DNA of 64,000 nt from an uncultured Flavobacteriaceae bacterium (GTDB lineage: Bacteria > Bacteroidota > Bacteroidia > Flavobacteriales > Flavobacteriaceae). This document shows, in pieces, positions 23,181 through 40,278 of this stretch. The notes beneath the pieces were generated by a model. It was not told where the DNA came from. It did not search any database and was given only the letters and a program-made list of their open reading frames with translations. Numbering within the stretch: position 1 is the first letter of the stretch; every line of letters starts with the position of its first letter. A program made the translations under genes and the position numbers. Location: the NCBI GenBank assembly GCA_905479095.1, contig CAJQLD010000021.1, forward strand, positions 36,837 to 100,836, written 5' to 3'.

Positions 23181-25244
23181 TTAATGTGTTTCGTTTTTTG
23201 ATTTCATAAATAGAGGGGTTGCACATAAATACCATTTTAACTTAAAACCAATTTCGCTAAAGTTGAAACCTGCAGCAGTTGCTGATGCAATATCACTATG
23301 CAAGCCAAAGAGATTAGCTGTAAACCTATTGGAGATATTGTAACCTAATTTACCCTGAAATCTAAATGTATTTTGCCGCTCTTGGTCTTCAACAAACTGT
23401 AATCCAGTTGCAAGGTTTAGATTGTAAAACCATTTTCCAGTTTGATTTTTCACAAGATCCACAAATACCTCAACAACATTAAATTTTTCTGGGCTAAAAT
23501 AAATAACCGGCACTTGATCTTTAAATGTTATGTATTGGTAATTTAAGCCTGTTTTAAGCAACGGTTTATCAAAAAGGTTATAATACACCGAAGTGAATAG
23601 TAAATGCTTCTGGTTGCTGTCATTTTGCCAAGAGTAATTGTATTGCGTATACCAACCTAAATTAAAATTAGAATTTACATTGTAATTTGCATATAAGGTG
23701 TTTTGCACAATTTCTCGGTTTAGTAAATCGGCATTAAAATCTTGCCATTCGCGTTTATAGCCAAGGTCTAAAGTTTGCAGTTTAAACGGTTTTGTTTTAA
23801 AAACGATATTTGTTAAAAACTGTGTGTAATTAGTTGTTTTTGCATTCACATCAGTCACACCAATATTTGTTTTAATAGCTATTTTTGGATGCAGTAAGTA
23901 GTTAAAACCAAATAACAAATTATTTGCTTTGGCTTTGTTAGTGGTGACTTTGTTTTTAGAATTTCTATAACTATACAAACCATTGACTTGTAACTTTGTA
24001 GATAATGGCACAGTGACGTTTGTTGTTTCGGTAAAAGCCTCATTATTTCCATTGTCAAAACTATAGGTCGTTTTTGTTTCAAAAAAAGGCGTAAACTGTT
24101 TGTCTAATATGTTTACAAAGTTTTCAGCATCTTTTTGGTTTTTAAAAATGGACAATGTTTTATAAACTGCTCGATAAGCGTCGTTGTACAAACCGAGCGC
24201 TTTTTGTGCATTGGCCTTCCCTAGATTTCCATCAAAAGAGATGCTGTCGTTTGTTAAAATGGTGTTGTAATCTTTAAGACTTTTTTTGAAATCTCCTTTA
24301 TAGGTATTTAAAGTGGCACGTAAGGCTAAAACCCAATTTTGGTTTGGCTTTGTGAGTATTAAATCCCTAATTAATGATCTAGCTGTTTTATACTTTTTAT
24401 TCCAAATTAAAGCTTGTATGTAACGTTCTGTTGTTTGTTGTGTTTGTGCTTCATTCATAGACGTTAATCCATCAAAAGCTTCTTTACTTATTTTAAGTGC
24501 ATCCTTTTCTTTTCTATTTAAATGCGAGACTAATGCCAAACCATTTAATGCTGTGATTTTTTGACCTGGTTGTTCTGCGATAAGATTATAGCACTCTTTT
24601 GCTTTTTCTAATTGATCTGAAATTAAATATAAATTAGCAAGATTCAGTAAGGTATCGATATCATTATTAAAGAGACGTAAATTTTCTTTTAACAAGTTTT
24701 CTGCTTGCGTATATTCTTGTTGCTGTTGTTTTTGGTAAGCATATCCTAAATACATGTATTTTTTAGAATTCAATGCATTTAAATTATTGGGCTTTACAAC
24801 TAATGCTTTATCAACATATATTAAGGCATTTTCGTATTCTTTTAAATTTGATAATGTGTTTGCATAACTTAAGAGTGCTGGAAAACTTTTAGGCTCTTCA
24901 TTTACTAATATTTTAAAATATTTCTTAGCTTCTTCAAACTTATCATTCCATAACAAAGATTCTCCATAATTCAATTTTACTTCAAAATCATCATTATAAT
25001 TTTCCAATAAATTTATAAAAATCGCAGTGGCTTTTTCAGGATTCCCGTTTAAACCAACAGCACGTCCAAAACACAAACGAGCCGTTTTATTTTGGGCATG
25101 ATCATTTAAGATATTTTGAAAAAATAATTCAGCGTTTTGATATTCTCCAGCTTCTAAATAAGCAAAACCTTTTTGCATATCTTGAGAGAACATAAATAGA
25201 GAAAACGTCGTGCAAAAAAGCAAGAGATAGGGATTGATTTTCAT
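23181..25244 (-). CDS. Secreted TPR protein with probable C-terminal outer-membrane beta-barrel
   Basis: Signal peptide MKINPYLLLFCTTFSLF from ATG 25244; multiple TPR-like helical repeats; last ~280 aa have an alternating aromatic/hydrophobic beta-strand pattern ending GFKLKWY. Confidence 0.7.
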   Translation of the reverse strand: MKINPYLLLFCTTFSLFMFSQDMQKGFAYLEAGEYQNAELFFQNILNDHAQNKTARLCFGRAVGLNGNPEKATAIFINLLENYNDDFEVKLNYGESLLWNDKFEEAKKYFKILVNEEPKSFPALLSYANTLSNLKEYENALIYVDKALVVKPNNLNALNSKKYMYLGYAYQKQQQQEYTQAENLLKENLRLFNNDIDTLLNLANLYLISDQLEKAKECYNLIAEQPGQKITALNGLALVSHLNRKEKDALKISKEAFDGLTSMNEAQTQQTTERYIQALIWNKKYKTARSLIRDLILTKPNQNWVLALRATLNTYKGDFKKSLKDYNTILTNDSISFDGNLGKANAQKALGLYNDAYRAVYKTLSIFKNQKDAENFVNILDKQFTPFFETKTTYSFDNGNNEAFTETTNVTVPLSTKLQVNGLYSYRNSKNKVTTNKAKANNLLFGFNYLLHPKIAIKTNIGVTDVNAKTTNYTQFLTNIVFKTKPFKLQTLDLGYKREWQDFNADLLNREIVQNTLYANYNVNSNFNLGWYTQYNYSWQNDSNQKHLLFTSVYYNLFDKPLLKTGLNYQYITFKDQVPVIYFSPEKFNVVEVFVDLVKNQTGKWFYNLNLATGLQFVEDQERQNTFRFQGKLGYNISNRFTANLFGLHSDIASATAAGFNFSEIGFKLKWYLCATPLFMKSKNETH

Positions 25245-25287
25245 TGGTAATTTTTGATAGTTCAAGTTAAACATTATAAGCGATTCA

Positions 25288-25317
25288 TTCATCTATAGAT
25301 AATGTCCTCTCATCGAA
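25288..25317 (+). promoter_or_regulatory. Candidate LytTR-type tandem box A
   Basis: TTCATCTAT-N12-CTCATCGAA, 21-bp period, in the divergent TPR/flippase promoter. Confidence 0.6.
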
Positions 25318-25499: not shown

Positions 25500-26738
25500 A
25501 TGCAAATCATCTCATTTATACGTTCAAAAAAGATATCGGATGAACAATTATTTATGTTGAGCGTACTGGTTGTTAATGCAGGTAATTATATATACAATCT
25601 TATTCTTGGTCGAATTTTAGATCCAGGACAATTTGCAGATGCAGCGGTCTTAATTACTTTTTTATCTGTTCTATCCTTTGTCGCGATGACTTTTCAATTA
25701 GTAACTGCAAAATTTTCAGTCGTATTTGAAACTAATTTATTTATGATTTTTATTTCAAAGGTTTATAAGAATGCTCTTTTTGTCGGAATTAGTTTTGGAG
25801 GTATCATTATTATTTTTTCAAAACAATTACAACAAATATTAAATACTTCATCTTCAAATATGTTTACTGTTTTCGGAATTGGGATGCCATTATACTTTTT
25901 AATGAGTGTCAATAGAGGCGTTTTTCAAGGAAAAAAAGCATTCAAGTATTTATCAATTACCTATCAATCTGAAATGTTGAGCAGACTGGTCATCACATTA
26001 GGATTGCTACTCGCATTTAACATACAATCGTCACTCGTAATCGCTCTTGGAATTTTCTTCTCCTTTTGTTTTGGTTTAATCCCGTTTAACTTTAAAAGTT
26101 TAAGCTTTAAAACATCTTTAGGCATTGCCCAAAATCAATTAAAATTAGTGAGAAAATTTTTTATAATTACTGCCTTTTATGAATTAACTCAAATTATAAT
26201 TAACAACAGTGACATTCTTTTAGTGAAGCATTATTTTGAATCGTATGAAGCTGGGTTGTATGCCTCTTTGGCAATAATTGGTAGAATTGTATACTTTATA
26301 GCTTGGATGTTTGTGATGTTATTACTCCCTACCGTTGTTGAACTTAAAAAAGAGGGAAAAGCAACAGCTCCAGTTTTATTTAAATATGTTGGGTATATAA
26401 CTATTGTAGCAGCTGTAATTATTTTGAGTTATGCATTATTTCCAAAAACAGCAATTAGCTTATTATTTGGTGAGAGTTATTTAGCGATGGCTCCCTTACT
26501 TTGGAAATATGCTTTAGCAACTGGGTTATTCGCCATTTCAAACATTTTTGCTTATTACTATTTGTCATTAGATCGATTTATGCCTGTTGTGTTGTCTGGT
26601 ATTTTTGGAATGTTACAAATGGGGCTCATCATATTTTTTCATGATACTTTAGAACAAGTCGTTCACATTCAAATTATAGCAATGATGTTATTACTCGTTT
26701 TTCAAATTATTTATTTCGCTTTAGATTCTAAATCATAA
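25500..26738 (+). CDS. Oligosaccharide flippase (Wzx/MOP-like)
   Basis: About 12 TM segments; NYIYNLILGRILDP, NNSDILLVKHYF, AGLYASLAIIGRIV flippase-like motifs. Confidence 0.8.
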   Translation: MQIISFIRSKKISDEQLFMLSVLVVNAGNYIYNLILGRILDPGQFADAAVLITFLSVLSFVAMTFQLVTAKFSVVFETNLFMIFISKVYKNALFVGISFGGIIIIFSKQLQQILNTSSSNMFTVFGIGMPLYFLMSVNRGVFQGKKAFKYLSITYQSEMLSRLVITLGLLLAFNIQSSLVIALGIFFSFCFGLIPFNFKSLSFKTSLGIAQNQLKLVRKFFIITAFYELTQIIINNSDILLVKHYFESYEAGLYASLAIIGRIVYFIAWMFVMLLLPTVVELKKEGKATAPVLFKYVGYITIVAAVIILSYALFPKTAISLLFGESYLAMAPLLWKYALATGLFAISNIFAYYYLSLDRFMPVVLSGIFGMLQMGLIIFFHDTLEQVVHIQIIAMMLLLVFQIIYFALDSKS

Positions 26739-26792: not shown

Positions 26793-28010
26793 ATGAAACT
26801 AGCTATCGTAACAGCATTTCCGCCAAGTAAAGTCACATTAAATGAATATGCTTACCATTTAGTAAAACACTTCAGACTAAAAAAAGACATTTCAGAAATT
26901 ATTTTGTTAACGGATAAAACAAAAGGTAAAAAAGATATTTTATTTACTAAAAAAGGGTGTGGCATTACAATCAAAGAATGTTGGTCGTTTAATAGCTATG
27001 CTAACATTATTAATATCACAAAAGCAATTAATAAAACAAAACCAGACGCCGTATTATTTAACTTACAGTTCATGAAATTTGGGGATAAAAAAATAGCTGC
27101 TGCATTAGGGTTATTTTTACCTTTTGTCTGTAAGTTAAAAGGAATCCCAAACATTGTTTTACTGCACAACATATTAGAAGAAGTCGATTTAGAATCTGCT
27201 GGATTTACAACTAACAAATTTCTACAAAAAATATACGGTTTTATAGGGACGACATTAACAAAAATAATATTACTAGCAGATGTTGTTTCGGTCACCATTC
27301 AAAAATATGCTACGACTTTGGAAGAAAAGTATAGTGCTAAAAACGTGATTTTAATACCACATGGAACCTTTGAAGTATCTGACGAAAAACCAGATTTTAC
27401 GGTTCCTAAAGGACCTTTACAAATAATGACTTTTGGGAAATTTGGAACTTACAAAAAAGTAGAGTTATTAATTGAAGCCGTAGAGGTTGTAAGAGATTCT
27501 ACTGGATTAGATCTAGAAGTGGTGATCGCAGGCACCGATAATCCAAATGTAAAAGGGTACTTGGCAAAAGTACAACAAGAGTATAACCATGTACCCCAAA
27601 TCAGATTTACAGGATACGTGAAAGAGTCTGAGGTGCCTACTCTGTTTAAAGAAAGTGCTGTAGTTGTATTCCCATATACATCTACTACAGGAAGTTCTGG
27701 TGTATTACATCAGGCAGGAAGTTATGGCAAAGCTGTTGTAATGCCCTATTTAGGGGACTTAGCATTACTAGTAAAAGATGAAGGTTATCTAGGTGAGTTC
27801 TTTGAACCAAGATCAGTTGAAAGCTTAGCAAAAGCAATAGAAGCAATTGTAACTAATGACTACTACAGAAAAGATTTAGGAAAGGCTAATTATAAAGCTG
27901 CGACGGCATATCCCATGAGTAAAATTACAGACATGTATCTCAATGAGTTCAATTCAATTATAAACAACAAAAAGCAGAGAAAAATACAATCCATTACTGG
28001 CCGGAGATAA
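26793..28010 (+). CDS. GT4 family glycosyltransferase (GT-B)
   Basis: LIPHG, FGKFGTYKKVELLIEA, RFTGYV, VVFPYTSTTGSSGVLHQAGSYGKAVV. Confidence 0.85.
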   Translation: MKLAIVTAFPPSKVTLNEYAYHLVKHFRLKKDISEIILLTDKTKGKKDILFTKKGCGITIKECWSFNSYANIINITKAINKTKPDAVLFNLQFMKFGDKKIAAALGLFLPFVCKLKGIPNIVLLHNILEEVDLESAGFTTNKFLQKIYGFIGTTLTKIILLADVVSVTIQKYATTLEEKYSAKNVILIPHGTFEVSDEKPDFTVPKGPLQIMTFGKFGTYKKVELLIEAVEVVRDSTGLDLEVVIAGTDNPNVKGYLAKVQQEYNHVPQIRFTGYVKESEVPTLFKESAVVVFPYTSTTGSSGVLHQAGSYGKAVVMPYLGDLALLVKDEGYLGEFFEPRSVESLAKAIEAIVTNDYYRKDLGKANYKAATAYPMSKITDMYLNEFNSIINNKKQRKIQSITGRR

Positions 28011-29511
28011 ACTTAAATGCCGCTTTTTTTGTTCCATTGTCATCAATAAATCCATAATATTTTTGAGCATTTTTACGCCAAGGTAGCCCTCCTACAACTT
28101 CATTTGGAATGTTTACAAAGTCATATAAGGTCCAAGACATAAATTGTATATCATTTTCAGAGATGATCTTTTGAGCTTTTTCATAATAATCGGCTTGATC
28201 ATTATTAGAATTTCCAAATGGGTTCCATAAACCACTATAAGAGGACATTCCAAATTCACCCATAACTAAAGGCTTGTTTGGAGCTTTTGCTTTAAGAGAT
28301 TTTATGGAGGCGGCAAGGTTATCTAAATCTTCATAATAATGAAAAGAGATAAAGTCAACTTTATCTTTTAAAATTGCTGCGCTTTGTATGTCGGACCATC
28401 CAATAGTGACTGCATGAGCGGAATCTATAGATTTAACCAAATCAATCAAAGCATTTAACCATGCGATAACATTCAATTCACCTCTTGAATCAAAGTCTAA
28501 GTTAGGCTCATTTTTAATATCCCAAGCAATAATTGCTTCATGATCTTTTAGTTCAGATACAATCGTTTTTGCATGCTGCATATTCAAGGTCCAATTTAAG
28601 ACTGAATAATCACCATAAAAGTCAAAAAGAGTGACCACAACTTTTAAATCATTTTCCTCTGCTGCATCTAATGTTTGCTTTAATTTATCTAATTTTTCTG
28701 TAATAACATTTGCTTTACCAAAATCATCATATTGCACAAAAATACGAACCGTAGTTAATCCGCTATCTCTAATAATCTTAAAGTCGTTTGAAATCGTGTT
28801 TTTTGAAAAAGCACCTCCAAACATATCCCATGGTGTATCTTTTGGATAATAATTAATCCCTCTTATGTTTAAATTGCTCGATGCAACTTTAGCGTTTTCT
28901 TTCTGATAATTTTCTGTGGATACTTTTACCATATGCCTAATTCTCCAAAAACCGTCTTCCAATAAAAGTATGATTTTGTAAGTGGATTTTTCTGTGGTTT
29001 CAAAAATTAATTTTTCATCTTTAAATACACGTTTGTACTCTAAAACATCAGTATCTGTAAGTATTGCTAAGTGTCCATCTTCGCTATAAAAATTTAAAGT
29101 TGGATGGTGCTCTAAAGTTGTAGATTCAATGGTGATTCTATTTTTTATATTTAAATCAATAAAATCAAACCTATTTTCACGAGCGTTATCCGTAAAGTAG
29201 TCCTTAATGACGTCTTTGGTATTCGTCTTATAAGCAACCAGGCTTACATACCATGCATCTAAATAATCATTTTCTAAAGTGTTTAGCGTTACTTCGTCCA
29301 TTGATCTTCCTTCATTATTTAAGGGAGTCCAATCAACTTTAGGGATGTATTGCTCTATTTTTTTTAATTCTGTATGAAGCATTTTACTTCTATCTGCTCC
29401 TGTATTTAGATATACAAACACTGCACTAATCCCAGATATAATAATTACAATAACTAGGAGATATGAGCCTAATAAAAGACTACGTACTATATTTTTATTT
29501 AAACCTACCAT
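27994..29511 (-). CDS. Membrane-anchored clan GH-A glycoside hydrolase (GH5/GH2-like TIM barrel)
   Basis: N-terminal TM anchor; RGINYYP, WDIKNEP acid/base Glu, ISFHYY, VMGEFG nucleophile Glu. Confidence 0.8.
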   Translation of the reverse strand: MVGLNKNIVRSLLLGSYLLVIVIIISGISAVFVYLNTGADRSKMLHTELKKIEQYIPKVDWTPLNNEGRSMDEVTLNTLENDYLDAWYVSLVAYKTNTKDVIKDYFTDNARENRFDFIDLNIKNRITIESTTLEHHPTLNFYSEDGHLAILTDTDVLEYKRVFKDEKLIFETTEKSTYKIILLLEDGFWRIRHMVKVSTENYQKENAKVASSNLNIRGINYYPKDTPWDMFGGAFSKNTISNDFKIIRDSGLTTVRIFVQYDDFGKANVITEKLDKLKQTLDAAEENDLKVVVTLFDFYGDYSVLNWTLNMQHAKTIVSELKDHEAIIAWDIKNEPNLDFDSRGELNVIAWLNALIDLVKSIDSAHAVTIGWSDIQSAAILKDKVDFISFHYYEDLDNLAASIKSLKAKAPNKPLVMGEFGMSSYSGLWNPFGNSNNDQADYYEKAQKIISENDIQFMSWTLYDFVNIPNEVVGGLPWRKNAQKYYGFIDDNGTKKAAFKFISGQ

Positions 29512-30722
29512 AGGATTTTAGAATTAAACGTTTTCTTTAATCCAGCCGTTTTAAGAACTATAGAATAAGTATCGTTTTTAAATACATCTGGTTTTAAATA
29601 GAAATCTACAAATCCATTAAAGGACGTTTTGGTCATCGTTTCAAGTACTCTATTGTTTTTATAAACGAACAGTTTAACTTCCAATCCATCAGGAATCATT
29701 TGATTCATAAAACTTTGTAGAGGTCCAACCGATATTCCTCTATTCGTTTCTGAAAATTCAACTTTAAAATCTTTCACAACCTGACTGTAGTTTAATGTGA
29801 TTGTATTACTTTCTGCAATACCCTCCACATAAGCCTTAACAGTCCATTGCGTACCATAATCAGGATGTATCATTTTAGAAGTTGCAACTCCGTTAATGGT
29901 CGTGCCGGAAGTATTTAAAATACTTCCTTTATCATTGGTTATAAAAAAAGAAACAAATGTACCATCACTAATAATATTGTTCTGTACATCTGTTAGAACA
30001 GACGTAGAAAATGTAGTAACCTGATTGCCATCGGCATACGCATGTGAGCGACTCGCTAAAATTTTAAAATCAATTGGAATCGCTGGAAAAACAGTGATAG
30101 AAAATTCTTTAGAATTTGTATGTAATGCTTCAGAAGAGACTAAGATGCGACCGCTTTTATTTTGAGAATATATATTTTTATAAGCAATAAAATTTTTAGT
30201 ATAAATATCATCTTGTTTTTCTAAATTCAAAAATTGATACTTTGTTTTTACGAGTGTGTTTTCGGCTAATGGATTGTCTAATGAATCGGTTGGAATCACA
30301 ACCAACATGGAATAATCCATTCCACCAGCTTCAATACTGGGAGGTCCAATATAAGTTTCCATCGAAGAAACAACTTGCTTTGGATGGATATTGAATTCCC
30401 CAGATATTGATGACTCTTCATGAATTAATTCCCATTTTATGACACCAATTTTACTGGAAATATTGGAAGGGAATGTATAGCTTAGTATTTTGTTCTCGTA
30501 AATTGGAGTTAACAAGGTAGAACCATAACTATTTGAGCAATATAAAAGTGGTTTTATTTCTTTTGTAGTTGCTACTTTTAAAACGATAGTTGTTCCTGCT
30601 TCAAATGCTGTTTGAGTCGTTTCTAAAGTGAAGCTTAAAGCGACTTCACTATTTTTAACGACTACAAATGAGGAGGATAAAATCAAGATCAATAGGAATA
30701 TGTATGTGAATTTATGCTGCAT
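29505..30722 (-). CDS. Secreted hypothetical protein, beta-rich (possible Ig-like domains)
   Basis: N-terminal signal/TM; HAYADGNQVTTFSTSVLTDVQNNIISDGTFV resembles invasin/Big_1 Ig segments; translationally coupled to neighbours. Confidence 0.6.
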   Translation of the reverse strand: MQHKFTYIFLLILILSSSFVVVKNSEVALSFTLETTQTAFEAGTTIVLKVATTKEIKPLLYCSNSYGSTLLTPIYENKILSYTFPSNISSKIGVIKWELIHEESSISGEFNIHPKQVVSSMETYIGPPSIEAGGMDYSMLVVIPTDSLDNPLAENTLVKTKYQFLNLEKQDDIYTKNFIAYKNIYSQNKSGRILVSSEALHTNSKEFSITVFPAIPIDFKILASRSHAYADGNQVTTFSTSVLTDVQNNIISDGTFVSFFITNDKGSILNTSGTTINGVATSKMIHPDYGTQWTVKAYVEGIAESNTITLNYSQVVKDFKVEFSETNRGISVGPLQSFMNQMIPDGLEVKLFVYKNNRVLETMTKTSFNGFVDFYLKPDVFKNDTYSIVLKTAGLKKTFNSKILW

Positions 30723-33700
30723 TAATTTAGGTTTCCAATGTAAGAGTTCATTTCAATTTTTATATAACTAAAGTCTGGATGCTTGATTTTTTGTAATTCA
30801 GAACTTGAATGATTTTCGATTCTATTCGGTATTATTTTATTTGAAATATGGGCATTAGGCAACCCATTTACAAAAACATTCTCCATAGACTCACTAATGA
30901 TTTTTATTTTACCATTCTTCAAAATTTGATATTCAAAACCTTTTTTTCGCTGTTGTCTGATCCCCTCTTTTAGAAATAAATGATCGACCCAAAGCATTGT
31001 TTTGTTTTGGTCGTAATAAGAGATTAAAAGTTGAGGCACTGTAATCTCCTGAATGCCGCTATTAAATAAATTTCCGCTAATAATGTCTCCATTTATATCT
31101 AATTGACTTAAGACACTCTTTTTATATAAATCAGATCCAGAAACATTTCCCGCTACTTGTAAATTGAATTTTGTAGGATGTTCTTTAAAATCAACAGGCG
31201 TAAATTCATCTGGATTAAAGGTGTCGGGTATAGAATCTTGCGTTTTTGACCATGCAATACCTTCAAAATTAATTCTAAAAGCACTTGACTCTTTAGGAAA
31301 TAATTTATGTTTAACATGGTATTTAGCGTTATACGTTGCAAGCTCTTTATTGTGATCATCATACAATGTGCCTTTAAGCACAATATCAGCAGGTACATTA
31401 TCTATATTTTGAATTTCTCCAATGATGGCAAAATGAGTCCCGTATTTTACAAGTCTTGCTGATAACACTTCTAAAACAGGTTGTTTTAAAATATCTTCAT
31501 GATGCGTTTGTTCTGTTGTTATACGTCTTCTTCCTTGATTAAAATAACTAGTCGTATTATTTGAAAAAAGTTGATCGGGTGGTAAATCAGTGTCTAAGCC
31601 TTCTGATTTTATATACCATTTCTTATGATATTTAGATACTGACTTATAATCAATTTTTCGTATTTTTTCGAGAGGTGTAATCCAATCAGCAATTACTTTG
31701 ACGGTTGCCAAACTATCATTTCTACTCGTAATAATTGTTTCAATGGCATCCAGTTTTGCATAACTATTTAGCAAACCTCCTGAGAGGGAGGTCTCAAGCA
31801 TATATTGTGAAATTGAAATATTACTTGTGGGATCTATCAAACTATATGCTATTTCAAACTCTTTGAAATCTAACGCGTCATAATAGGCAATTATAGCGTT
31901 TTCTGGACTTCGTTGTGAGTCATTTTTTAAATAGAATTGATAAAGATTATAAAAGACAATTACAACTAAAAAAATTGACCAAAAGTGTGTGATTTTCAGG
32001 ATTGATTTTGAGAACTTCGAATAACGATTAGAAAATTTTAAAAATTCAGGTGTTTTTTTATGTCTTGTTTTTAAAGTATTTACCAATAACATTTGTATGT
32101 TTAAAATAAACGCTATTAATACCGTTAAAAATGGCACTATTCCCCATACAATTTTTTGCCATTTTGCGACATCATCCTTGGGTAAAATAGATGAAATTGG
32201 TGATACATTCAATCGCTCCCAAACCATAATTCCATTTTCTAATTTCTGCAATCGTTGCCAACCACAGAAATAGAGTATCGGATCATAAAACTTATCATTA
32301 GAGAAAATATATTTAAGATTATATTTATCTGGAGTTGTCAAAAACTGCTGTAATGAACCAATTCCTGCGACCCCTTTAAATTTTGAGTTTTCTAAACGCT
32401 CTATAGGTCTAGTGGTTAGTTCTGGTAATCTTCGCGCCGAATGATAATTTCCGTCGACTGTCATTGCATTAGTTTGCGCACTTAACCATGCCATTTGATC
32501 ACCAAAACCTAAAGTTAAAAACCGCCATTTATCGTGATCATCTTGATTTAAGAAGTTCACAATAGGGAGCATCTCAATTTTTTGCGGCTGGAATGGCCTA
32601 AAGTAACCAAGACTCATGGTGAAAACAGTCATAAAGATAAATAGTCCAGCAAGGATTCCTCCAATAATACGATGGTAAATTGCTCCAAAACGCACTCGAA
32701 TCAAGGCTTTTAAATCCCCTTCTACAAAACGATACGCAAATTCACCTAGTAGGGGTAACGACATAATAGAAGCCCAAAGCGTAAATCTATCTAATGTAAG
32801 AATGTTAAATGCTGTTTCACCTAAAACCATTCTTGGAATTGGGGTCGTTCCGCCAGTTCCTAAAATCGTTAGTAGTGTTATCGATAAACCGAAAAAGAGA
32901 TAACGTTTACTATAATATCTATAAAAAATATATGGCAATAGGATGAGTAGAATTCCCCAAGGGATTAAAAAGAACATTAGACCAGAAGACGTAATTTCTA
33001 AAAAATTATCTCTTGATCCGTGCGGAATGGGTACTTGAGTTATTGGATTATTTTTTGAATTAATCCAATATGGAAAAATACAGCCAATAATAATAACTAG
33101 TGAAGCCATTCCAAAACTAATAATCCTGTTAAAGAGTTTAAAGAAACTATTTAGAAAAATTTTAAACGAAACTTCTTTTAGTGTGTCTACTTGATCTCGA
33201 GACACATCTAAAATAACCATTCCTATTAATGGAAAGACAAAAAATACCATTCCGAATATAGGGGTCACATGATGAGAAGTAACAGTCACAGCAATTAATG
33301 ACAAGGAAGTTGCTAAATATCTTGATCTACCTGTTTTAAGCCATAAATAAATTTCTGGTAACGCATGCATTAAAATAGAAATCCCAACAATACTTGGCAA
33401 TTGACCAAATACGTGAAGCGTTTCAACAAATGATGACGAAAATACTGCTAAAATAGAGGCATAACCCGCAACCGTTTTATTTGATGTAATTAATAACGAA
33501 AACCGATACACTCCAGTTATAAAAAGGACTATTGAAATTAGAGCGACCGAGAACAATCCAAACTTTAACCCCCCCATCATCGACAGTAGTCCAATAGATT
33601 GATGAACTAAAGGAGGATAGCTCATAACCGTAAAGCCTGTATACCACTCATAATTCCAAGGTTCAAACCAACTATTGGCATAATGGTCCGAAAAAAATAA

Positions 33701-33811
33701 ATGGATCAAAGCATCATAGGTACTTTCTAAAGTGAAAAACATGGAAGTACCATGAAACACAACCCCAATTAGTAGTGCAACAATCAAATATTTATTGGTG
33801 GTTTCTTTCAT
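30722..33811 (-). CDS. Large polytopic membrane protein, GT-C-like N-terminus with extracytoplasmic C-terminal domains
   Basis: A dozen or more TM segments in the first ~630 aa; YDALIH...WNYEWYTGFTVMSYPPLVHQ first loop resembles PTPS-related/YfhO-like GT-C proteins. Confidence 0.6.
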   Translation of the reverse strand: MKETTNKYLIVALLIGVVFHGTSMFFTLESTYDALIHLFFSDHYANSWFEPWNYEWYTGFTVMSYPPLVHQSIGLLSMMGGLKFGLFSVALISIVLFITGVYRFSLLITSNKTVAGYASILAVFSSSFVETLHVFGQLPSIVGISILMHALPEIYLWLKTGRSRYLATSLSLIAVTVTSHHVTPIFGMVFFVFPLIGMVILDVSRDQVDTLKEVSFKIFLNSFFKLFNRIISFGMASLVIIIGCIFPYWINSKNNPITQVPIPHGSRDNFLEITSSGLMFFLIPWGILLILLPYIFYRYYSKRYLFFGLSITLLTILGTGGTTPIPRMVLGETAFNILTLDRFTLWASIMSLPLLGEFAYRFVEGDLKALIRVRFGAIYHRIIGGILAGLFIFMTVFTMSLGYFRPFQPQKIEMLPIVNFLNQDDHDKWRFLTLGFGDQMAWLSAQTNAMTVDGNYHSARRLPELTTRPIERLENSKFKGVAGIGSLQQFLTTPDKYNLKYIFSNDKFYDPILYFCGWQRLQKLENGIMVWERLNVSPISSILPKDDVAKWQKIVWGIVPFLTVLIAFILNIQMLLVNTLKTRHKKTPEFLKFSNRYSKFSKSILKITHFWSIFLVVIVFYNLYQFYLKNDSQRSPENAIIAYYDALDFKEFEIAYSLIDPTSNISISQYMLETSLSGGLLNSYAKLDAIETIITSRNDSLATVKVIADWITPLEKIRKIDYKSVSKYHKKWYIKSEGLDTDLPPDQLFSNNTTSYFNQGRRRITTEQTHHEDILKQPVLEVLSARLVKYGTHFAIIGEIQNIDNVPADIVLKGTLYDDHNKELATYNAKYHVKHKLFPKESSAFRINFEGIAWSKTQDSIPDTFNPDEFTPVDFKEHPTKFNLQVAGNVSGSDLYKKSVLSQLDINGDIISGNLFNSGIQEITVPQLLISYYDQNKTMLWVDHLFLKEGIRQQRKKGFEYQILKNGKIKIISESMENVFVNGLPNAHISNKIIPNRIENHSSSELQKIKHPDFSYIKIEMNSYIGNLN

Positions 33812-33873
33812 CGATAATCTTCACAGTATCAGCAATGTAAATATAAATTATTCTAATAGCATTTCAATTGCTT

Positions 33874-33903
33874 GTCATCTAAAGCAATTGACCATTCGTC
33901 TAC
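33874..33903 (+). promoter_or_regulatory. Candidate LytTR-type tandem box B
   Basis: GTCATCTAA-N12-TTCGTCTAC, 21-bp period, in the divergent GT-C/REC-GT2 promoter. Confidence 0.6.
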
Positions 33904-33986
33904 ACATAATAATTAATTAATCTAAAGAACAATTTTAGACCCCTCTTGTATAGTATTTTAGAAGTCTCTAAATAAAATATCATACT

Positions 33987-35201
33987 TTGAAAATATTAGC
34001 GATAGATGATCAAAAACTAGTGTTGCTTCCAATAGAAAAGCGGTTAAATGAACTTGAATATAAAGTCAAAACTGAAACAAACTCTATTAAAGCAATAGGC
34101 ATTTATCATTCGTTTAAACCCGATTTGGTAATCGTTGATATTAACATGCCTAAAATTTCAGGATTAGAAATTGTGAAATATATTAGAAATTCCGAAAATC
34201 CGAAAACACCTATATTAATTTTATCTGGCGATACAAATGATAACGTCATAATTGAAGGGTTTGATTTAGGAATTAATGATTACATGAAAAAACCAATAAG
34301 CTTAAATGAAATATGTGTTCGAATAAAAAAATTAATTGGAATTCCAAAACAAGTAAATACCGTGAAAACGATCAGTCAAGTAATCATCCAACAACGCTGC
34401 GTAGGAGTCGTAATTCCCTGTTATAACGAAGAGCAACGTTTGTTAAGTAAAAAGTTTACTAATTATATTGATAAAAACTCTGGCTATCATCTATGTTTTG
34501 TAAATGATGGTAGTAAAGACAAAACTTTAGAAGTCCTTAAGAAATTACAAAAAGGCAGAGAAGAGTTTATAACGATTTATGATTGCAAAAAAAATGGTGG
34601 AAAAGCCGAAGCTGTTCGTTTGGGAATGCTCTACATGGCTAAAAAAGAAGATATCGATTATATAGGTTTCCTAGATGCCGATTTATCGACCAATCTAACC
34701 GATTTTGATGATCTAGTAAAAACAATAGAACATTCTGATTTCAAAATAGTGAGCGGGTCTAGAATTACACGAATGGGAGCAAATATCACAAAAGAGTCCG
34801 CTAGAACCGTTATAAGTTTTACAATTAATTTTATAATTAGAAAAATTTTATCCATGGATTTTAAAGACACACAATGTGGTGCGAAAATATTTCATAAGGA
34901 TATTATCTCAATCGTTTTTAGAGATAAATTTATAACAAAGTGGATTTTTGATGTTGAAATATTTAAAAGAATGTCACAATATTATGGTCTAAAAAAAGCC
35001 AAAACAATGCTTTGTGAACAACCGTTAAAAAAATGGATACATGCTGATGGCTCAAAATTATCTTTAAAAGACTCGTTTAGAATTATAAGTGACTTAGCAC
35101 TAATTGCTTGGGTTTATAGATCAAAAAAAATAAAAAATAAAGCTTTAGCAGAAGCTTTATATACTGACCAAACAGGATCCTACTCCCCTACGGATTATTA
35201 G
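33987..35201 (+). CDS. Receiver domain-GT2 glycosyltransferase fusion
   Basis: TTG start; REC motifs IDD, VIVD51INMP, ILS, KKP; GT2 motifs VVIPCYNEE, FVNDGSKD, NGGKAEAV, FLDADL, DTQCGAK (polyprenol-phosphate sugar synthase-like). Confidence 0.9.
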   Translation: MKILAIDDQKLVLLPIEKRLNELEYKVKTETNSIKAIGIYHSFKPDLVIVDINMPKISGLEIVKYIRNSENPKTPILILSGDTNDNVIIEGFDLGINDYMKKPISLNEICVRIKKLIGIPKQVNTVKTISQVIIQQRCVGVVIPCYNEEQRLLSKKFTNYIDKNSGYHLCFVNDGSKDKTLEVLKKLQKGREEFITIYDCKKNGGKAEAVRLGMLYMAKKEDIDYIGFLDADLSTNLTDFDDLVKTIEHSDFKIVSGSRITRMGANITKESARTVISFTINFIIRKILSMDFKDTQCGAKIFHKDIISIVFRDKFITKWIFDVEIFKRMSQYYGLKKAKTMLCEQPLKKWIHADGSKLSLKDSFRIISDLALIAWVYRSKKIKNKALAEALYTDQTGSYSPTDY

Positions 35202-35277: not shown

Positions 35278-35991
35278 TTATAATAAATTAAGCAGCTTCA
35301 TTAGCTGAGGTCTGTTGGAGCGACTTACGGGAATTACATCTCTTTTTATCAACACACTATTGTCTTCAATATCAATGATTTTTTTGATATTTATAATATA
35401 AGAGCGATGAATTTTTAAAAACAAATGGTCTGGAAGTTTATCTTCTATTTTTTTTAAAGTAGAATGTACCATATAGTTTTTGTTCTCTGTTTTTACATGA
35501 ATATAATCCCCTTTTGCTTCAATGAGGTATATACTAGGAATATCAATTTTAATAAGCCTTCTGTCAATATTAATATACAAATCGTCTGCAGAAGTCCTTT
35601 CTGTTTTTTTTGATGAATCATAAGAATCAACCGATGAATTCTGTTTGTCTGTTGCTTTTTGTAGTGCCTTTTGAAAACGCTCAGGAGCTATTGGTTTCAC
35701 TAAGTAATCTAAAATACAATCGTATTCAAAAGCTTGTATAGCAAAATTTGAATCTGAAGTCGTCAATATTATTTTTGGAGGATTTTTTAATGTTTCAATA
35801 AAATCAAACCCTGTGAAATCTGGCATGTGAATATCTAAGAAAATTAAATCAACCGTATGTTGATTTAAATATTTAATGGCTTGAATTGCATTTGGAAACT
35901 CTTCAATAACATTAAGATTTTCAACTTTAGAACATAACTGTCCAATAATAGCTCTTGCAGTAACCTCATCATCAATAATAATACAATTCAT
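35278..35991 (-). CDS. LytTR family DNA-binding response regulator
   Basis: REC (IIDDE, IFLDIHMP, DYLVKP) plus LytTR (IYLIEAKGDY, FLKIHRSYIIN, IPVSRS). Confidence 0.95.
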   Translation of the reverse strand: MNCIIIDDEVTARAIIGQLCSKVENLNVIEEFPNAIQAIKYLNQHTVDLIFLDIHMPDFTGFDFIETLKNPPKIILTTSDSNFAIQAFEYDCILDYLVKPIAPERFQKALQKATDKQNSSVDSYDSSKKTERTSADDLYINIDRRLIKIDIPSIYLIEAKGDYIHVKTENKNYMVHSTLKKIEDKLPDHLFLKIHRSYIINIKKIIDIEDNSVLIKRDVIPVSRSNRPQLMKLLNLL

Positions 35992-36000
35992 AAATACTAA

Positions 36001-36318
36001 CTATAGTTGTTGTAAATAATTTGTTATGTTAATTAATATAGATTTGAATTCTTGATTAAGGCTTGTATTTCCTTTTAATAAATCGTTTTCAAAAGCTGAA
36101 GCAATTTCATAACTTTTATCAAGACCCAATATACTAATTTTATGCTTAAGTTTATGCACATTATCTGCAGTCAACTTAAAGTTTTTAGCTTTAAAGTTTT
36201 TTAAATATTCTTCTTTCTCTAAAGGAAACTCCATTTTAATTATATTAATTATCTTTTTCTCAAAGGCCGTATCTCCTCCTGACATATTATATATATAAGA
36301 TAAGTTTGGTGTTTCCAT
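36001..36318 (-). CDS. Stand-alone Hpt histidine phosphotransfer protein
   Basis: 105 aa helical protein with VHKLKHKISILG Hpt motif. Confidence 0.85.
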   Translation of the reverse strand: METPNLSYIYNMSGGDTAFEKKIINIIKMEFPLEKEEYLKNFKAKNFKLTADNVHKLKHKISILGLDKSYEIASAFENDLLKGNTSLNQEFKSILINITNYLQQL

Positions 36319-36320
36319 AT

Positions 36321-37535
36321 TTATTTTTTTAACGTAAAATGGAATGTAGTTCCTTTTCCATAATCAGATTCTATCCATATATTTCCATTATAAAGATCTA
36401 TAATTTTTTTGACAATTGAAAGTCCTATTCCTGTAGAATCTTTATGATCATTTAGTGAATGGAAAATTTTGAAAATTTTATCATGGTATTTTTTTTCTAT
36501 TCCAACGCCGTTATCCTTAATTGAAAATTGATAAAACGATTTTTTTTCAGAAACGTCAATTTCTATTAAACCGTTTTTTTTATTATTAAATTTAATCGCA
36601 TTACCAATTAAGTTTTGAAACAATTGCTGAAATTTTGTTCGTTCACCAAAGACAACTGGCAATTTATTCTTAACATTAATTTTAATATGACTTGGAATAA
36701 AAATAATTTTTTTCAAGTCTTCAATAACTATATTTAAATCAACATTTAGTTTTTTAGATTCGTCCAAACTAACACTAGAATACAATAATACATCCGAAAT
36801 CAACAGCTCCATCTTTTCTAAAGTGGATTCGATATGACCAAAGTTTTGAAGACTGTTTTTATCAAATTTTCCTATATTATCTTCTTTTAGCCAACTTACT
36901 AAGGCGTAAATACTACTTAGCGGTGATTTTAAATCATGGGATACAATGTGTGCATATTCTTGAAGTTCATCATTACTCTTTCCAAGTTTCAAAAGTAACT
37001 TTTCTTTTTGGAGTTCAAGGTTTTTAATTTCAGTAATATCCCTAACAATTCCTTGTGCAGCTATGGCTTTATGGTTTTCATCATAAATGATACTTGCATT
37101 AATATGAACTAATTTTTGATCATTTGATTTTGTATTTATTTTAACTTGAAAATTTGTGATCGATCCATTATTAATTAATTTACTGTAACTTTTTTTGACT
37201 TTTTCAACCTCTGAAACATCGACGAGAGTAAAAAGATTAATATTTTCTTGATTGTTGTCATAGCCAAGCAAACTGGTTGCAGGTTCATTCATTTTTATAA
37301 CATTGCCCCTAAGATCCATAACAACATATGCATCTACTATATTTTCAAATACACCTCTCAGTTCAGATGATTTTTCAGCAATTAATTTCTCTAATTTAAA
37401 ATTAGATTTTTTTAGTTTTTGGGTAAGGTCATAGAATTCGGTAGATTTTCCTTCTAAAATTTTTTCAGCAGCTTTTCTCGCCCCTTTCTCACGTTTTAAA
37501 GCTCTTAATAAGATGCCTTCTAGTTGTTGATTCAT
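36321..37535 (-). CDS. Soluble PAS-domain sensor histidine kinase
   Basis: N-terminal coiled coil (REKGARKAAEKILE), PAS, H-box SHDLKSPL, N-box NLIGNAIKF, KDNGVGI, GIGLSIV, GKGTTF; no TM segment. Confidence 0.93.
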   Translation of the reverse strand: MNQQLEGILLRALKREKGARKAAEKILEGKSTEFYDLTQKLKKSNFKLEKLIAEKSSELRGVFENIVDAYVVMDLRGNVIKMNEPATSLLGYDNNQENINLFTLVDVSEVEKVKKSYSKLINNGSITNFQVKINTKSNDQKLVHINASIIYDENHKAIAAQGIVRDITEIKNLELQKEKLLLKLGKSNDELQEYAHIVSHDLKSPLSSIYALVSWLKEDNIGKFDKNSLQNFGHIESTLEKMELLISDVLLYSSVSLDESKKLNVDLNIVIEDLKKIIFIPSHIKINVKNKLPVVFGERTKFQQLFQNLIGNAIKFNNKKNGLIEIDVSEKKSFYQFSIKDNGVGIEKKYHDKIFKIFHSLNDHKDSTGIGLSIVKKIIDLYNGNIWIESDYGKGTTFHFTLKK

Positions 37536-38074
37536 TTATTCTTTGTGATGCTAAATTTGACTTCAGTTCCATCCTCTTTGATTTTTTCTAAATCAATGAC
37601 TGCTGTAGAATTAAAATACTCAAAGGTTTTATTCATCAGACCTAAGCCAAAATGATGCATAGCCCTACTAGACTTGTAAATCATTATTAATGAATTTTCT
37701 GTTTTTTCAATGACCTCAAATGTTGGTAATTCCGCATCTGGGTAAATTTTTCTAACCTCAACATGAATATGGTTTTCAATAGATGAAATCATTTCTATAG
37801 GGTCTTTATAAATTGCTAAAAGTCCAGGATAACTACTTTCAATTACACTAAAAAAATGCTCCGCATACACAAGTAAAAGGGCGTCTATAGAAATTTTTGT
37901 ATGCGCACTTAGATGCTGAAGTAATTGTAACATTTCAGAAAATTCATAGGTGCCAACAGAAGTATAGATGCCTTCAGACTCTAGTTTTGAAGCACTGATA
38001 ATTTTATCAACAACTTCCAATCCAAATTTAGTTTCTACAAGCTCTAAAAATTCAGTAAGTACGATTCCTTTCAT
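37532..38074 (-). CDS. H-NOX (heme NO/O2-binding) sensor
   Basis: MKGIV N-terminus, YTSVGTY, proximal His104 in HIHVEVRKIYP, Y133-x-S-x-R137 heme motif. Confidence 0.93.
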   Translation of the reverse strand: MKGIVLTEFLELVETKFGLEVVDKIISASKLESEGIYTSVGTYEFSEMLQLLQHLSAHTKISIDALLLVYAEHFFSVIESSYPGLLAIYKDPIEMISSIENHIHVEVRKIYPDAELPTFEVIEKTENSLIMIYKSSRAMHHFGLGLMNKTFEYFNSTAVIDLEKIKEDGTEVKFSITKNK

Positions 38075-38483
38075 TTGTGTTTTTTAATTCATTTATACTC
38101 CAATACGCTAATAGTTTTTCAATTTTAGATACATAATCTTCATATTTTAGAGGTTTGAGTACGTAGCCTGCAATCCCAATTTCATAACAAGCAATCAAAT
38201 CTTTTTGATTATTGGAGGTCGTTAGTATTATTGTTGGGATATATTTTAATGTATCATCATTTTTTAAAATAGATAAAAACTCGATCCCATTTATTTTGGG
38301 CATGTTTAAGTCTAATAAAATAATATTCGGGAGATTGGTTTTTTGTGCTAATAGTTTTAAATCATCTTCGACATTATTAGCGCCAATGATTTCATGATTT
38401 AGTTTTAATTTTGAGATGGTTCTATTAAACTTCATAACTTCAATAGCATCATCTTCAATAAGTAGGATTTTAAGGGTTTTCAT
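38052..38483 (-). CDS. Single-domain response regulator (Rcp1-like)
   Basis: LLIEDD, ILLDLNMPKING, ILTTS, YVLKP. Confidence 0.93.
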   Translation of the reverse strand: MKTLKILLIEDDAIEVMKFNRTISKLKLNHEIIGANNVEDDLKLLAQKTNLPNIILLDLNMPKINGIEFLSILKNDDTLKYIPTIILTTSNNQKDLIACYEIGIAGYVLKPLKYEDYVSKIEKLLAYWSINELKNTNERNRTY

Positions 38484-38563
38484 TTCAATAAAAAATTAAA
38501 TAATTTCTAAAATAAATATATCCTACGGGTGGTCCTATATATTTTGTTTGATGGTTGGGAAGT

Positions 38564-38594
38564 GTCGATGAATAGCTAAAATATGGCGATGAAT
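38564..38594 (-). promoter_or_regulatory. Candidate LytTR-type tandem box C
   Basis: Minus strand ATTCATCGCC-N11-ATTCATCGAC (9/10 identical, 21-bp period), 80 bp upstream of the signalling operon. Confidence 0.65.
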
Positions 38595-38684
38595 TGTAAT
38601 GCTGATTTTGGCGGTTTATTTGAAACTCGATTTATAAGTCTATTTCTTAGTTGTCTACTTAGTTGCTCAATTTTAAGAAGCACC

Positions 38685-40223
38685 TTATCCCAACCACCCA
38701 TCACGATCCAAACTTCTGTATTGAATGGCTTCACTAATATGGGCACTTTCTATAGACGAAGCGCCTTCTAAATCGGCAATGGTTCTGGAAACTTTTAAAA
38801 TACGATCATAGGCTCGCGCTGACAAACCGAGGCGTTCCATAGCGGTTTTTAAAAGCTGCATTGAATTCGCATCTAATTTACAATAAGCACGTATTTGCTT
38901 CACATTCATTTGTGCGTTGTAATGTACACTACTCGATTTTTCAAAACGCTGTGTTTGTAATTCACGTGCTTTAGTCACCCGTTTTCTTATATCCACGGAG
39001 GACTCCCCTTTGCGCTCGTCTGACAGTTTTTCAAACGGGACCGGTGTCACCTCTATATGGATATCAATACGATCCAATAATGGTCCCGAAATTTTACCCA
39101 AATACCGTTGCATTTCCCCCGCAGATGACATCGTAGGCGCATTTGGGTCATTAAAATACCCACTAGGACTTGGGTTCATACTGGCCACCAACATAAAACT
39201 ACTTGGATAGGTGACTGTAAACTTGGCACGTGAAATGGTCACCTCTCGATCTTCTAAGGGCTGACGCATGACTTCTAATACCTCCCGTTTAAATTCTGGT
39301 AATTCATCTAAAAACAACACCCCATTATGAGACAGTGAAATTTCACCGGGTTGCGGGTAACTTCCCCCACCCACGAGGGCTACATTTGAAATCGTATGAT
39401 GGGGCGACCGAAATGGACGTTGTGCAATTAATCCTTTTTGAGCACCAACCCGCCCTACTACAGAATGTATTTTAGTCGTTTCCAAGGCTTCGTGCAAGGT
39501 CATCGGAGGCAGAATTGATGGCAAGCGCTTGGCGAGCATGGTTTTTCCCGCGCCCGGTGGCCCAATTAATATAATGTTATGTCCACCAGCAGCAGCAATT
39601 TCCATACAGCGTTTGATGCTCTCCTGCCCTTTGACATCAGAAAAATCAAATTCAGGATGCTCTAAGTTTTTTTGAAACTCGGCATGGGTATCTACTATGG
39701 TTTGCTCTAAGGCTTTGTTTTTATCAAAATAATTAATCACTTCCGAAATGTGTTCCACACCATACACTTTCAACCCGTCGACAATGGCAGCTTCTTTTGC
39801 ATTTTCTTTAGGTAGAATAAATCCTTCAAAACCATCCTCTAGAGCTTTAATCGCAATTGGCAACGCCCCTTTGATGGGCTGTACTGATCCATCTAAGGAG
39901 AGTTCTCCCATAATGACATACCGATCAATGTTGACCTCTTTTATTTGATTGGAGGCCGTTAAGATCCCCATTGCCAACGACAAGTCATAGGCAGCCCCTT
40001 CTTTGCGCATATCCGCAGGCGACATATTGATGATGAGTTTTTTACCGGGAATTTTATAACCATTATTTTGAAGCGCAGCCGCAATTCGGAAGTTACTTTC
40101 TTTAATGGCGTTATCTGGTAATCCCACCAAATGGTAGCCGATGCCTTTATCGACATTGACTTCGATTGTGATGGTATGTGCTTCCACGCCAAAGACGGCG
40201 CTTCCATAGACTTTTTTGAGCAT
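38685..40223 (-). CDS. comM: YifB/ComM Mg-chelatase-like AAA+ ATPase
   Basis: Lon-like N-domain (GLPDNAIKES, YDLSLAMG), Walker A GPPGAGKT, PFRSPHH, LFLDELPEF, GPLLDRID, YRSLD. Confidence 0.95.
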   Translation of the reverse strand: MLKKVYGSAVFGVEAHTITIEVNVDKGIGYHLVGLPDNAIKESNFRIAAALQNNGYKIPGKKLIINMSPADMRKEGAAYDLSLAMGILTASNQIKEVNIDRYVIMGELSLDGSVQPIKGALPIAIKALEDGFEGFILPKENAKEAAIVDGLKVYGVEHISEVINYFDKNKALEQTIVDTHAEFQKNLEHPEFDFSDVKGQESIKRCMEIAAAGGHNIILIGPPGAGKTMLAKRLPSILPPMTLHEALETTKIHSVVGRVGAQKGLIAQRPFRSPHHTISNVALVGGGSYPQPGEISLSHNGVLFLDELPEFKREVLEVMRQPLEDREVTISRAKFTVTYPSSFMLVASMNPSPSGYFNDPNAPTMSSAGEMQRYLGKISGPLLDRIDIHIEVTPVPFEKLSDERKGESSVDIRKRVTKARELQTQRFEKSSSVHYNAQMNVKQIRAYCKLDANSMQLLKTAMERLGLSARAYDRILKVSRTIADLEGASSIESAHISEAIQYRSLDRDGWLG

Positions 40224-40278
40224 TTTAGTAAATTTGAGAATTTAAAACTACTAAATATTAAGGAATAATAAAATTATT

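Follow-up and report, generated by a model that had tools for sequence, protein, structure and literature searches.

A conserved receiver–glycosyltransferase fusion in Flavobacteriaceae and its predicted place in a glycan export cluster linked to an H-NOX phosphorelay

The DNA analysed herein is a 64,000-nucleotide stretch from an uncultured Flavobacteriaceae bacterium (GenBank assembly GCA_905479095.1, contig CAJQLD010000021.1, positions 36,837 to 100,836 of the forward strand), referred to below as the window. It carries a gene, REC-GT2, whose product joins an N-terminal receiver (REC) domain to a family 2 glycosyltransferase (GT2). We show that REC-GT2 is a conserved, uncharacterised response regulator of the enzymatic kind, and that it lies next to a membrane protein of predicted GT-C glycosyltransferase fold, in a glycan export cluster which co-occurs across the family with a phosphorelay built around the haem sensor H-NOX. 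As a whole, these data are best explained by a scheme in which a receiver fed by the relay controls the synthesis, by the GT2, of a lipid-linked sugar donor for the GT-C partner. We give this reading a probability of about 50%.

The receiver and glycosyltransferase domains

Two data sets were used for comparison. Whole-genome searches covered 300 Flavobacteriaceae genomes, nearly all of different genera, plus the present genome (301 in all), and gene neighbourhoods were compared at 80 orthologous loci with 10-kb flanks, drawn from many genera of the family. The fusion of receiver and GT2 is real and not an artefact of assembly: full-length orthologues with 60–79% identity occur at these loci, and the complete fusion was found in about 58 of the 300 genera sampled. 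An earlier note on this DNA, made from the sequence alone, had described an intact receiver joined by a short linker to a GT2. That description holds, in that every motif it named was found in the place it gave and the linker spans about residues 114–136. The AlphaFold2 model of the protein, based on a 65-sequence alignment, is confident, with a predicted local distance difference test (pLDDT) score of 92.5 and a predicted template modelling (pTM) score of 0.89. Databases label the protein either ‘response regulator’ or, automatically, ‘dolichyl-phosphate beta-glucosyltransferase’ (UniRef), and a literature search found no study of the REC-GT2 family or of its gene cluster.

The receiver matches PF00072 with 86.5 bits against a curated cut-off of 30.2, over profile positions 1–110 of 111. 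Its key residues are D7/D8, D51 (codon 34137–34139), S80, the switch residue Y99 and K102. An alignment of 20 diverse full-length relatives, the most distant at 33% identity, shows D8 in every sequence and D7, D51, S80, Y99 and K102 each in at least 90% of them. The modelled domain has the (βα)5 topology and aligns with the receivers of CheY4, Spo0F and YycF at TM-scores of 0.90–0.94 (Foldseek). Since the acidic pair, D51, S80, Y99 and K102 are conserved, the receiver looks fully competent for phosphorylation.

For the GT2 domain, the earlier note had proposed a dolichol- or undecaprenol-phosphate sugar synthase type, and both sequence and fold matches back this assignment. PF00535 covers residues 141–307 (E 8e-21, far over the curated cut-off). 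The FLDADL motif lies at residues 228–233, with the DxD residues D230/D232 encoded at 34674–34682, and DTQCGAK at residues 294–300. The D230-A-D232 element is retained across the orthologue group and in standalone homologues of the domain (about 245 amino acids (aa), about 40% identical), which are very numerous in metagenomes. A sequence search of the PDB gave seven matches at E ≤0.001, all of them ArnC (6.7e-7), GtrB (1.4e-5) or archaeal dolichyl-phosphate mannose synthase, and the NCBIfam models that span the catalytic domain are ArnC, PgfS, PpgS and AglJ. In Foldseek searches, the 16 top matches in the PDB are all polyprenyl-phosphate enzymes, led by ArnC, GtrB and DPMS (E 2e-12 to 2e-10), and the best 30 matches among Swiss-Prot models are all polyprenyl-phosphate glycosyltransferases. 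ALG5 ranks first in the latter (E about 1e-17, 24–28% identity, residues 137–385), followed by AglD, DPM1, Ppm1 and ArnC. GpgS structures were also matched, at E about 6e-9. With this pattern of matches, the acceptor of the GT2 is very probably a polyprenyl phosphate.

Like DPM1 and Ppm1, members of this class without a transmembrane helix, REC-GT2 has none, and its highest 19-residue hydropathy is 1.18. Two moderately hydrophobic helices of the GT2 domain, at residues 271–288 and 360–378, are possible membrane-interface helices. The top-ranking match notwithstanding, identification with ALG5 in the strict sense was rejected. ALG5 has an N-terminal transmembrane anchor, where REC-GT2 has a receiver, and the identity is just 24–28%.

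About 13 genera among the 301 genomes carry a GT2 orthologue without the receiver, at 44–49% identity. One example of 282 aa begins directly at the GT2 core and has NDGS, IDADL and DTQCGAK intact. Because these orthologues occupy the same cluster, it appears that the pathway can run without the receiver switch. On this comparison, the receiver would be an optional, added layer of control and not the sole gate, and the relay and its Hpt protein would not depend on it.

The predicted GT-C-fold neighbour and the putative export cluster

The gene divergent from REC-GT2 encodes a 1029-aa polytopic membrane protein (Table 1), for which no Pfam family and no PDB sequence match were found; a profile search of its alignment against PDB sequences likewise gave no match. 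The protein is strongly conserved. Its first 650 aa are 82–89% identical across genera, its orthologues are mostly 1029 aa long (range 1026–1049), and E29 and D33, which follow the first helix, are invariant. Its neighbours in a protein language model that have a Pfam family are all of GT-C type (PTPS_related, PMT_2, STT3 and DUF6311). In a structural search of the PDB with the predicted model, the membrane-protein matches were all GT-C enzymes with Z-scores of 12–16, among them STT3 (15.9), AglB (15.8), ALG12 (15.5) and ArnT (13.8), and further AftD, PglB, AftA, PMTs and ALG3/6/9. Matches to AlphaFold database clusters were RgtA-like, PTPS-related and YfhO. An NTF2-like domain (about residues 630–738) and β-rich domains are placed behind the membrane part.

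Pairs of a polyprenyl-phosphate GT2 with a GT-C enzyme are textbook: GtrB, ArnC, DPM1, ALG5 and Ppm1 with GtrC, ArnT, PMT, ALG6 and PimE, as well as CsbB–YfhO. Like the GT2 members of these pairs, REC-GT2 has a GT-A fold and a DxD motif and adjoins a protein of predicted GT-C fold. It differs in its N-terminal receiver, which was found in no described member, and its identity to characterised members is just 18–28%. The 1029-aa protein in turn differs from known GT-C partners in lying outside Pfam and in having about 400 extra periplasmic residues, the NTF2-like domain included. In a 963-aa protein of Polaribacter (P0266/P0394), a related GT2 domain with 38% identity to that of REC-GT2 shares a single chain with a GT-C-like DUF6311 domain; in one record, from Polaribacter sejongensis, this gene is split into pieces of 369 and 589 aa. 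By predicted fold and gene order, REC-GT2 and the 1029-aa protein look like a classical polyprenyl-phosphate sugar synthase/GT-C pair, and the 1029-aa protein is probably the consumer of the lipid-linked sugar.

The genes that follow encode a putative export system. TIGR03939, the model for the PgaA porin, covers residues 277–605 of the 703-aa TPR protein (E 5.8e-8), and this TPR/porin gene was found at the same place in all 10 of the mapped superclusters that bear the glycan cluster. Judged by their domains, the parts resemble those of a synthase-dependent exopolysaccharide system of Pel or poly-N-acetylglucosamine (PNAG) layout, with a TPR and porin exporter (PgaA-like), a periplasmic hydrolase, and a GT4 and MOP-like protein as in PelF/PelG. 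Membership of Pel itself was rejected: no specific Pel model matched (those for PelF and PelG included), no PelD-like protein was found, and the genome gave no GGDEF match.

On its other side, REC-GT2 is directly followed in 46–47 of the 80 relatives by a 164-aa open reading frame that resembles the N-terminal half of a GT2 only (L001:11212-11706). A class I mannose-6-phosphate isomerase gene (manA) comes after it in about 28–33 of the 80 (L001:11718-12719). Both are absent from the window, where the relay operon stands in their place. Mannose had been considered as the sugar of the GT2 from the nearby manA and was dropped, manA being a housekeeping gene that the window does not have.

The H-NOX relay and the upstream repeat

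In the window, the relay operon lies at the REC-GT2 end of the cluster and is convergent to REC-GT2. The earlier note had tied the receiver to this neighbouring kinase and Hpt protein. Comparative genomics supports the tie, through linkage and co-occurrence, but not the adjacency from which it had been read, which arises from a local rearrangement. Within the 10-kb flanks, the H-NOX operon adjoins REC-GT2 in only two of the 80 loci; the whole-genome searches place it, as a conserved feature, 9–35 kb off in the opposite direction. The H-NOX gene is present in 112 of the 301 genomes, and these include 67 of the 71 GT2-positive genomes against 45 of the 230 others, a difference for which kinship among the genomes inflates any P value. 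The H-NOX and GT2 genes share a contig in 57 genomes, 1.8–35 kb apart (median 18 kb). Most of the 11 genomes mapped show, with local variations, the same supercluster order: relay genes, TPR/porin, flippase-like, GT4, hydrolase, Ig-like, GT-C, REC-GT2. The relay genes themselves run REC143, H-NOX, PAS kinase, often a FIST protein and a second kinase, Hpt and REC-LytTR in the relatives. The 80 loci show no further kinase gene with a conserved place near REC-GT2. From this comparison, the functional linkage of REC-GT2 with the H-NOX relay appears to be old and widespread.

Because in the relatives the H-NOX operon and REC-GT2 stand at opposite ends of the cluster, the adjacency seen in the window appears to be derived. 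Copies of a 28-bp sequence from the 3′ end of comM flank the whole block in the same orientation, at 22920–22947 and 38705–38732 (27 of 28 positions identical), and an IS1595 transposase gene follows the intact comM (35278–41206 region); the block is possibly island-like. Many relatives carry a 529-aa double-PAS kinase, a 377-aa FIST-domain protein and a 349-aa second kinase between H-NOX and Hpt (L084:5035-8810). Since the window offers a single PAS kinase (404 aa) and lacks genes for FIST and for a second kinase, its relay seems to have lost one of two sensory inputs.

The assignment of the Hpt protein comes from its orthologues. PF01627 is sub-threshold for the window protein (E 0.008), whereas 11 of 11 orthologues match it (best 1.2e-5). 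A profile search of the Hpt alignment against PDB sequences gave nothing useful, the best Hpt match being YojN at E 0.64. The genome (2.23 Mb in 102 contigs, 90% complete) encodes 17 receivers and nine HisKA kinases, several of them hybrid. Hpt-like matches in this 90%-complete genome are limited to the Hpt of the cluster, and no GGDEF domain was found there. The signalling repertoire is small, without detectable synthesis of cyclic di-GMP (c-di-GMP). Within it, the signalling proteins of the cluster (a kinase that is not a hybrid, one single-domain receiver, a free-standing Hpt and two more receivers) have the predicted layout of a branched phosphorelay, and we favour, by a little, the H-NOX relay as the phosphodonor of the REC-GT2 receiver.

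A degenerate relative offers a view of this tie. Distant REC-GT2 paralogues (P0124, P0126-P0128, P0131, P0134, P0138, P0139, P0142 and P0178) keep the receiver residues and are without DxD and DTQCGAK. In Urechidicola croceus (G155), a degenerate REC-GT2 (L100:3139-4275) still lies beside the H-NOX operon, with other neighbours. It ends an operon of uncharacterised proteins that includes an 835-aa FadL-like outer-membrane protein, and no GT-C gene was found in the 22 kb mapped around it. From its residues and its neighbours, this protein may be a pseudo-enzyme adaptor. The case seems to strengthen the tie between relay and receiver, yet would also show that the output can drift.

Transcription may offer a second point of contact. 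A direct repeat with TCATC and TCGTC cores, 21 bp apart, lies in the divergent intergenic region upstream of REC-GT2. In the relatives the repeat reads ATTATCTACA, 11 bases, ATTCGTCTACA, and alignment of the upstream regions places it equally far from the gene at most of the orthologous loci. The strict pattern occurs in 13 of 76 loci, where 0.25 would be expected; the alignments show that the repeat is more widely conserved than this pattern reveals, its first box being looser. The 21-bp period is that known for LytTR operators, which makes transcriptional control by the relay likely. By its sequence the repeat is likely a LytTR operator, which would imply autoregulation, and the LytTR regulator probably gives parallel transcriptional control of the cluster. 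Similar boxes occur at 25288–25317, before the flippase/TPR pair, and at 38564–38594, before the relay operon. A scan of this Bacteroidota locus for sigma-70 promoters and terminators gave nothing informative.

Table 1. Position and basis of the features of the REC-GT2 locus, in window coordinates
Feature	Position	Strand	Basis and remarks
703-aa TPR protein with PgaA-like outer-membrane porin part	23181..25292	-	TPR families; TIGR03939
MOP/Wzx-type flippase-like membrane protein	25500..26738	+	PF13440 2e-10; 70/80 loci
GT4 glycosyltransferase	26793..28010	+	PF00534 1.4e-18; 71/80 loci
505-aa TIM-barrel glycoside hydrolase	27994..29511	-	Glyco_hydro_2_C 5e-8, Glyco_hydro_cc; 74/80 loci
405-aa immunoglobulin (Ig)-like (invasin D3-like) secreted protein	29505..30722	-	weak Pfam match; 75/80 loci
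1029-aa polytopic membrane protein, predicted GT-C fold	30722..33811	-	divergent neighbour, 75/80 loci; presumed user of lipid-linked sugar
Direct repeat, candidate LytTR operator	33872..33905	+	115 to 82 bp upstream of REC-GT2 start, divergent intergenic region
REC-GT2 gene	33987..35201	+	404 aa, TTG start; open reading frame listing, Pfam REC and GT2 domains, orthologues
Receiver domain, residues 3–113	33993..34325	+	PF00072 E 1.8e-24; best NCBIfam matches OmpR/PhoB-type receivers
GT2 catalytic domain, polyprenyl-phosphate sugar synthase type, residues 137–385	34395..35141	+	PF00535, PDB sequence matches, Foldseek
REC-LytTR response regulator, last gene of H-NOX operon	35278..35991	-	convergent to REC-GT2; Pfam; orthologues in relatives’ superclusters
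105-aa Hpt protein	36001..36318	-	His55 in invariant VHKLKHK
PAS histidine kinase, 404 aa, without own receiver	36321..37535	-	Pfam PAS, HisKA, HATPase_c
H-NOX haem sensor of nitric oxide (NO)/O2	37532..38074	-	PF07700 6.9e-38; stop overlaps kinase start; sole H-NOX in genome
Single-domain receiver REC143 (143 aa), first H-NOX operon gene	38052..38483	-	PF00072 7.5e-19; conserved first in relatives

Proposed mechanism, alternatives and significance

In the mechanism that we propose, REC-GT2 would be a GT2 like DPM1, ALG5, GtrB and ArnC, peripheral to the membrane and moving one sugar from a nucleotide sugar onto polyprenyl (undecaprenyl) phosphate. The lipid-linked sugar would be flipped and then used on the periplasmic side by the 1029-aa GT-C-fold protein, which would build or decorate a polysaccharide, while processing of the polymer and its export across the outer membrane would fall to the GT4, the MOP-like protein, the hydrolase, the Ig-like protein and the TPR/PgaA-like porin. 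On the signalling side, H-NOX would modulate the PAS kinase, and phosphate would pass via REC143 and Hpt to both the LytTR regulator (transcription) and Asp51 of REC-GT2 (activity). A fast post-translational control of donor supply would in this way be added to the transcriptional control. In Shewanella and Vibrio, NO-bound H-NOX inhibits its partner kinase (PMC8738867). By analogy with these systems, NO would lower the phosphate flow to the LytTR regulator and to Asp51. We infer that the GT2 is gated by phosphorylation of Asp51. Among possible mechanisms we prefer a phosphorylation-driven dimerisation that would assemble an active GT2 oligomer or bring the GT2 to the membrane, given that the receiver belongs to the OmpR/PhoB type and that GtrB and ArnC act as tetramers.

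Several observations count against this scheme. The orthologues without a receiver share not only the same cluster but also the same relay, Hpt included. REC-GT2 is never found inside the H-NOX operon itself, and the linkage could reflect transcriptional control alone. The α1 helix of a receiver usually holds its partner specificity, and the α1 helices differ among the three receivers of the cluster (REC-GT2, REC-LytTR and REC143). P0125, a REC-GT2 that has its motifs intact and comes from a different lineage, sits among housekeeping genes, without such a cluster. REC-GT2 has no transmembrane helix, its membrane association being assumed by analogy with DPM1 and Ppm1, which also have none. Finally, the 1029-aa protein is modelled with low confidence (pLDDT 57.8), and chance alone can give helical bundles a high Z-score.

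In an alternative version, the enzyme and pathway are as proposed, but the receiver is served by another HisKA or hybrid kinase, of which there are eight, or by acetyl phosphate, and the H-NOX relay acts via the LytTR regulator only. This would agree with the arrangement in the relatives, where REC-GT2 forms its own transcription unit and the relay lies at the far end of the cluster, with retention of the whole relay, Hpt included, beside receiver-less orthologues, and with an α1 specificity helix in REC-GT2 unlike those of the LytTR receiver and REC143. The nine HisKA kinases of the genome, several of them hybrid, provide candidate donors, and the direct repeat upstream of REC-GT2 suits transcriptional control. 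However, REC-GT2 is very strongly tied to the H-NOX relay by linkage (57 pairs within 36 kb) and by co-occurrence (67 of 71 genomes against 45 of the 230 others), none of the 80 loci shows another kinase gene conserved near REC-GT2, and a relay in which the Hpt stands free, the kinase is non-hybrid and one receiver has a single domain is laid out like a branched one feeding several receivers. We regard this version as rather unlikely, though as the most probable of the alternatives.

We consider it very unlikely that the receiver is a constitutive module for dimerisation or docking, which might, for example, hold the GT2 at the GT-C protein or at a membrane complex, in the manner of atypical response regulators that work independently of phosphorylation. 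The GT2 does lack a membrane anchor, the receiver sits at the N-terminal place of the ALG5 anchor, receiver-less orthologues occur in the same cluster, and the two domains are packed confidently in the model (pTM 0.89). Conservation of D7, D8, D51, S80, Y99 and K102 at 90% or more, even at 33–46% identity, would be unexpected after loss of phosphorylation. Similarly improbable is another acceptor for the GT2, be it a soluble phosphorylated metabolite (the case for glucosyl-3-phosphoglycerate synthase), a glycolipid or the growing GT4 polymer: the GpgS fold matches (E about 6e-9), the absence of a transmembrane segment and the functional drift in the wider family, seen in distant paralogues with degenerate catalytic motifs and other neighbours, speak for it, but the best 30 Swiss-Prot and best 16 PDB fold matches are all polyprenyl-phosphate enzymes, a partner of predicted GT-C fold is present in 75 of 80 loci and a GT-C-like domain is fused to a related GT2 in P0266, and DPM1 and Ppm1 are members of the polyprenyl-phosphate class without a transmembrane segment.

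The proposed relay-fed receiver acting on donor synthesis can be set beside several known systems. Response regulators with enzymatic outputs are few, among them CheB, PleD/WspR, RpfG and PorX. REC-GT2 shares with them an N-terminal canonical receiver and a C-terminal enzyme, and PorX, which is among the Foldseek PDB matches, shows that a response regulator of the enzyme type exists in Bacteroidota. We know of no glycosyltransferase that is a demonstrated direct output of a two-component system, and our literature search found no described receiver fused to a lipid-carrier-charging GT2. A precedent is MTH_548 of Methanobacteriaceae, a fusion of a receiver with a BcsA-like GT2, which Galperin and co-workers catalogued (PMC5847659) and which is confined to three archaeal genera. 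That protein is archaeal and its GT2 is of the processive, cellulose-synthase-like kind (PF13641), whereas REC-GT2 is bacterial and, by its matches, of the non-processive, carrier-charging type. No experimental study of either fusion was found in the literature search.

Among synthase-dependent exopolysaccharide systems, Pel (through PelD), PNAG (PgaABCD), cellulose (the PilZ domain of BcsA) and alginate (Alg44) are under c-di-GMP control. The present cluster is like them in that regulation is built into the biosynthetic machinery itself, through a domain joined to it. It is unlike them in that this module is a receiver and no c-di-GMP receptor is present, and the pair of a polyprenyl-phosphate sugar synthase with a GT-C protein is an addition to their layout. 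It is conceivable, and we put this forward tentatively, that a receiver fused to the carrier-charging enzyme has taken the place of the c-di-GMP receptor, so that a phosphorelay with H-NOX and FIST inputs would switch polymer synthesis within seconds, in parallel with LytTR.

The relay, too, has relatives that have been studied. NO signalling through HnoX–HnoK–HnoB/C/D in Shewanella and H-NOX–HqsK–LuxU in Vibrio has been reviewed (PMC8738867). Here, as in those systems, the H-NOX gene abuts a kinase gene, an Hpt relay layout leads to several receivers, and the outputs, in the present case predicted, bear on surface and biofilm functions. The known outputs, in Proteobacteria, are c-di-GMP enzymes or quorum-sensing regulators, whereas the candidate outputs of the cluster are a LytTR regulator and a glycosyltransferase; unlike those systems, many flavobacterial relatives add a FIST sensor and a second kinase. 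The literature search found no study of H-NOX in Flavobacteriaceae.

The system is well suited to experiment: REC-GT2 is soluble, the relay is small, and the receiver-less orthologues are natural controls. If phosphorylation of Asp51 does control the synthesis of undecaprenyl-phosphate sugar, REC-GT2 would represent a new class of direct two-component output. It would be the first glycosyltransferase shown in this role and would open the first route from NO to a polysaccharide without a second messenger. A role would also be assigned to a highly conserved GT-C-fold protein outside the described families. Flavobacteriaceae are largely without c-di-GMP signalling, and their marine members are major colonisers of algae and particles. 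In this context, the finding would show post-translational control of an exopolysaccharide or envelope glycan in a phylum where c-di-GMP signalling is scarce or absent, and would give H-NOX signalling its first function in marine Flavobacteriaceae.

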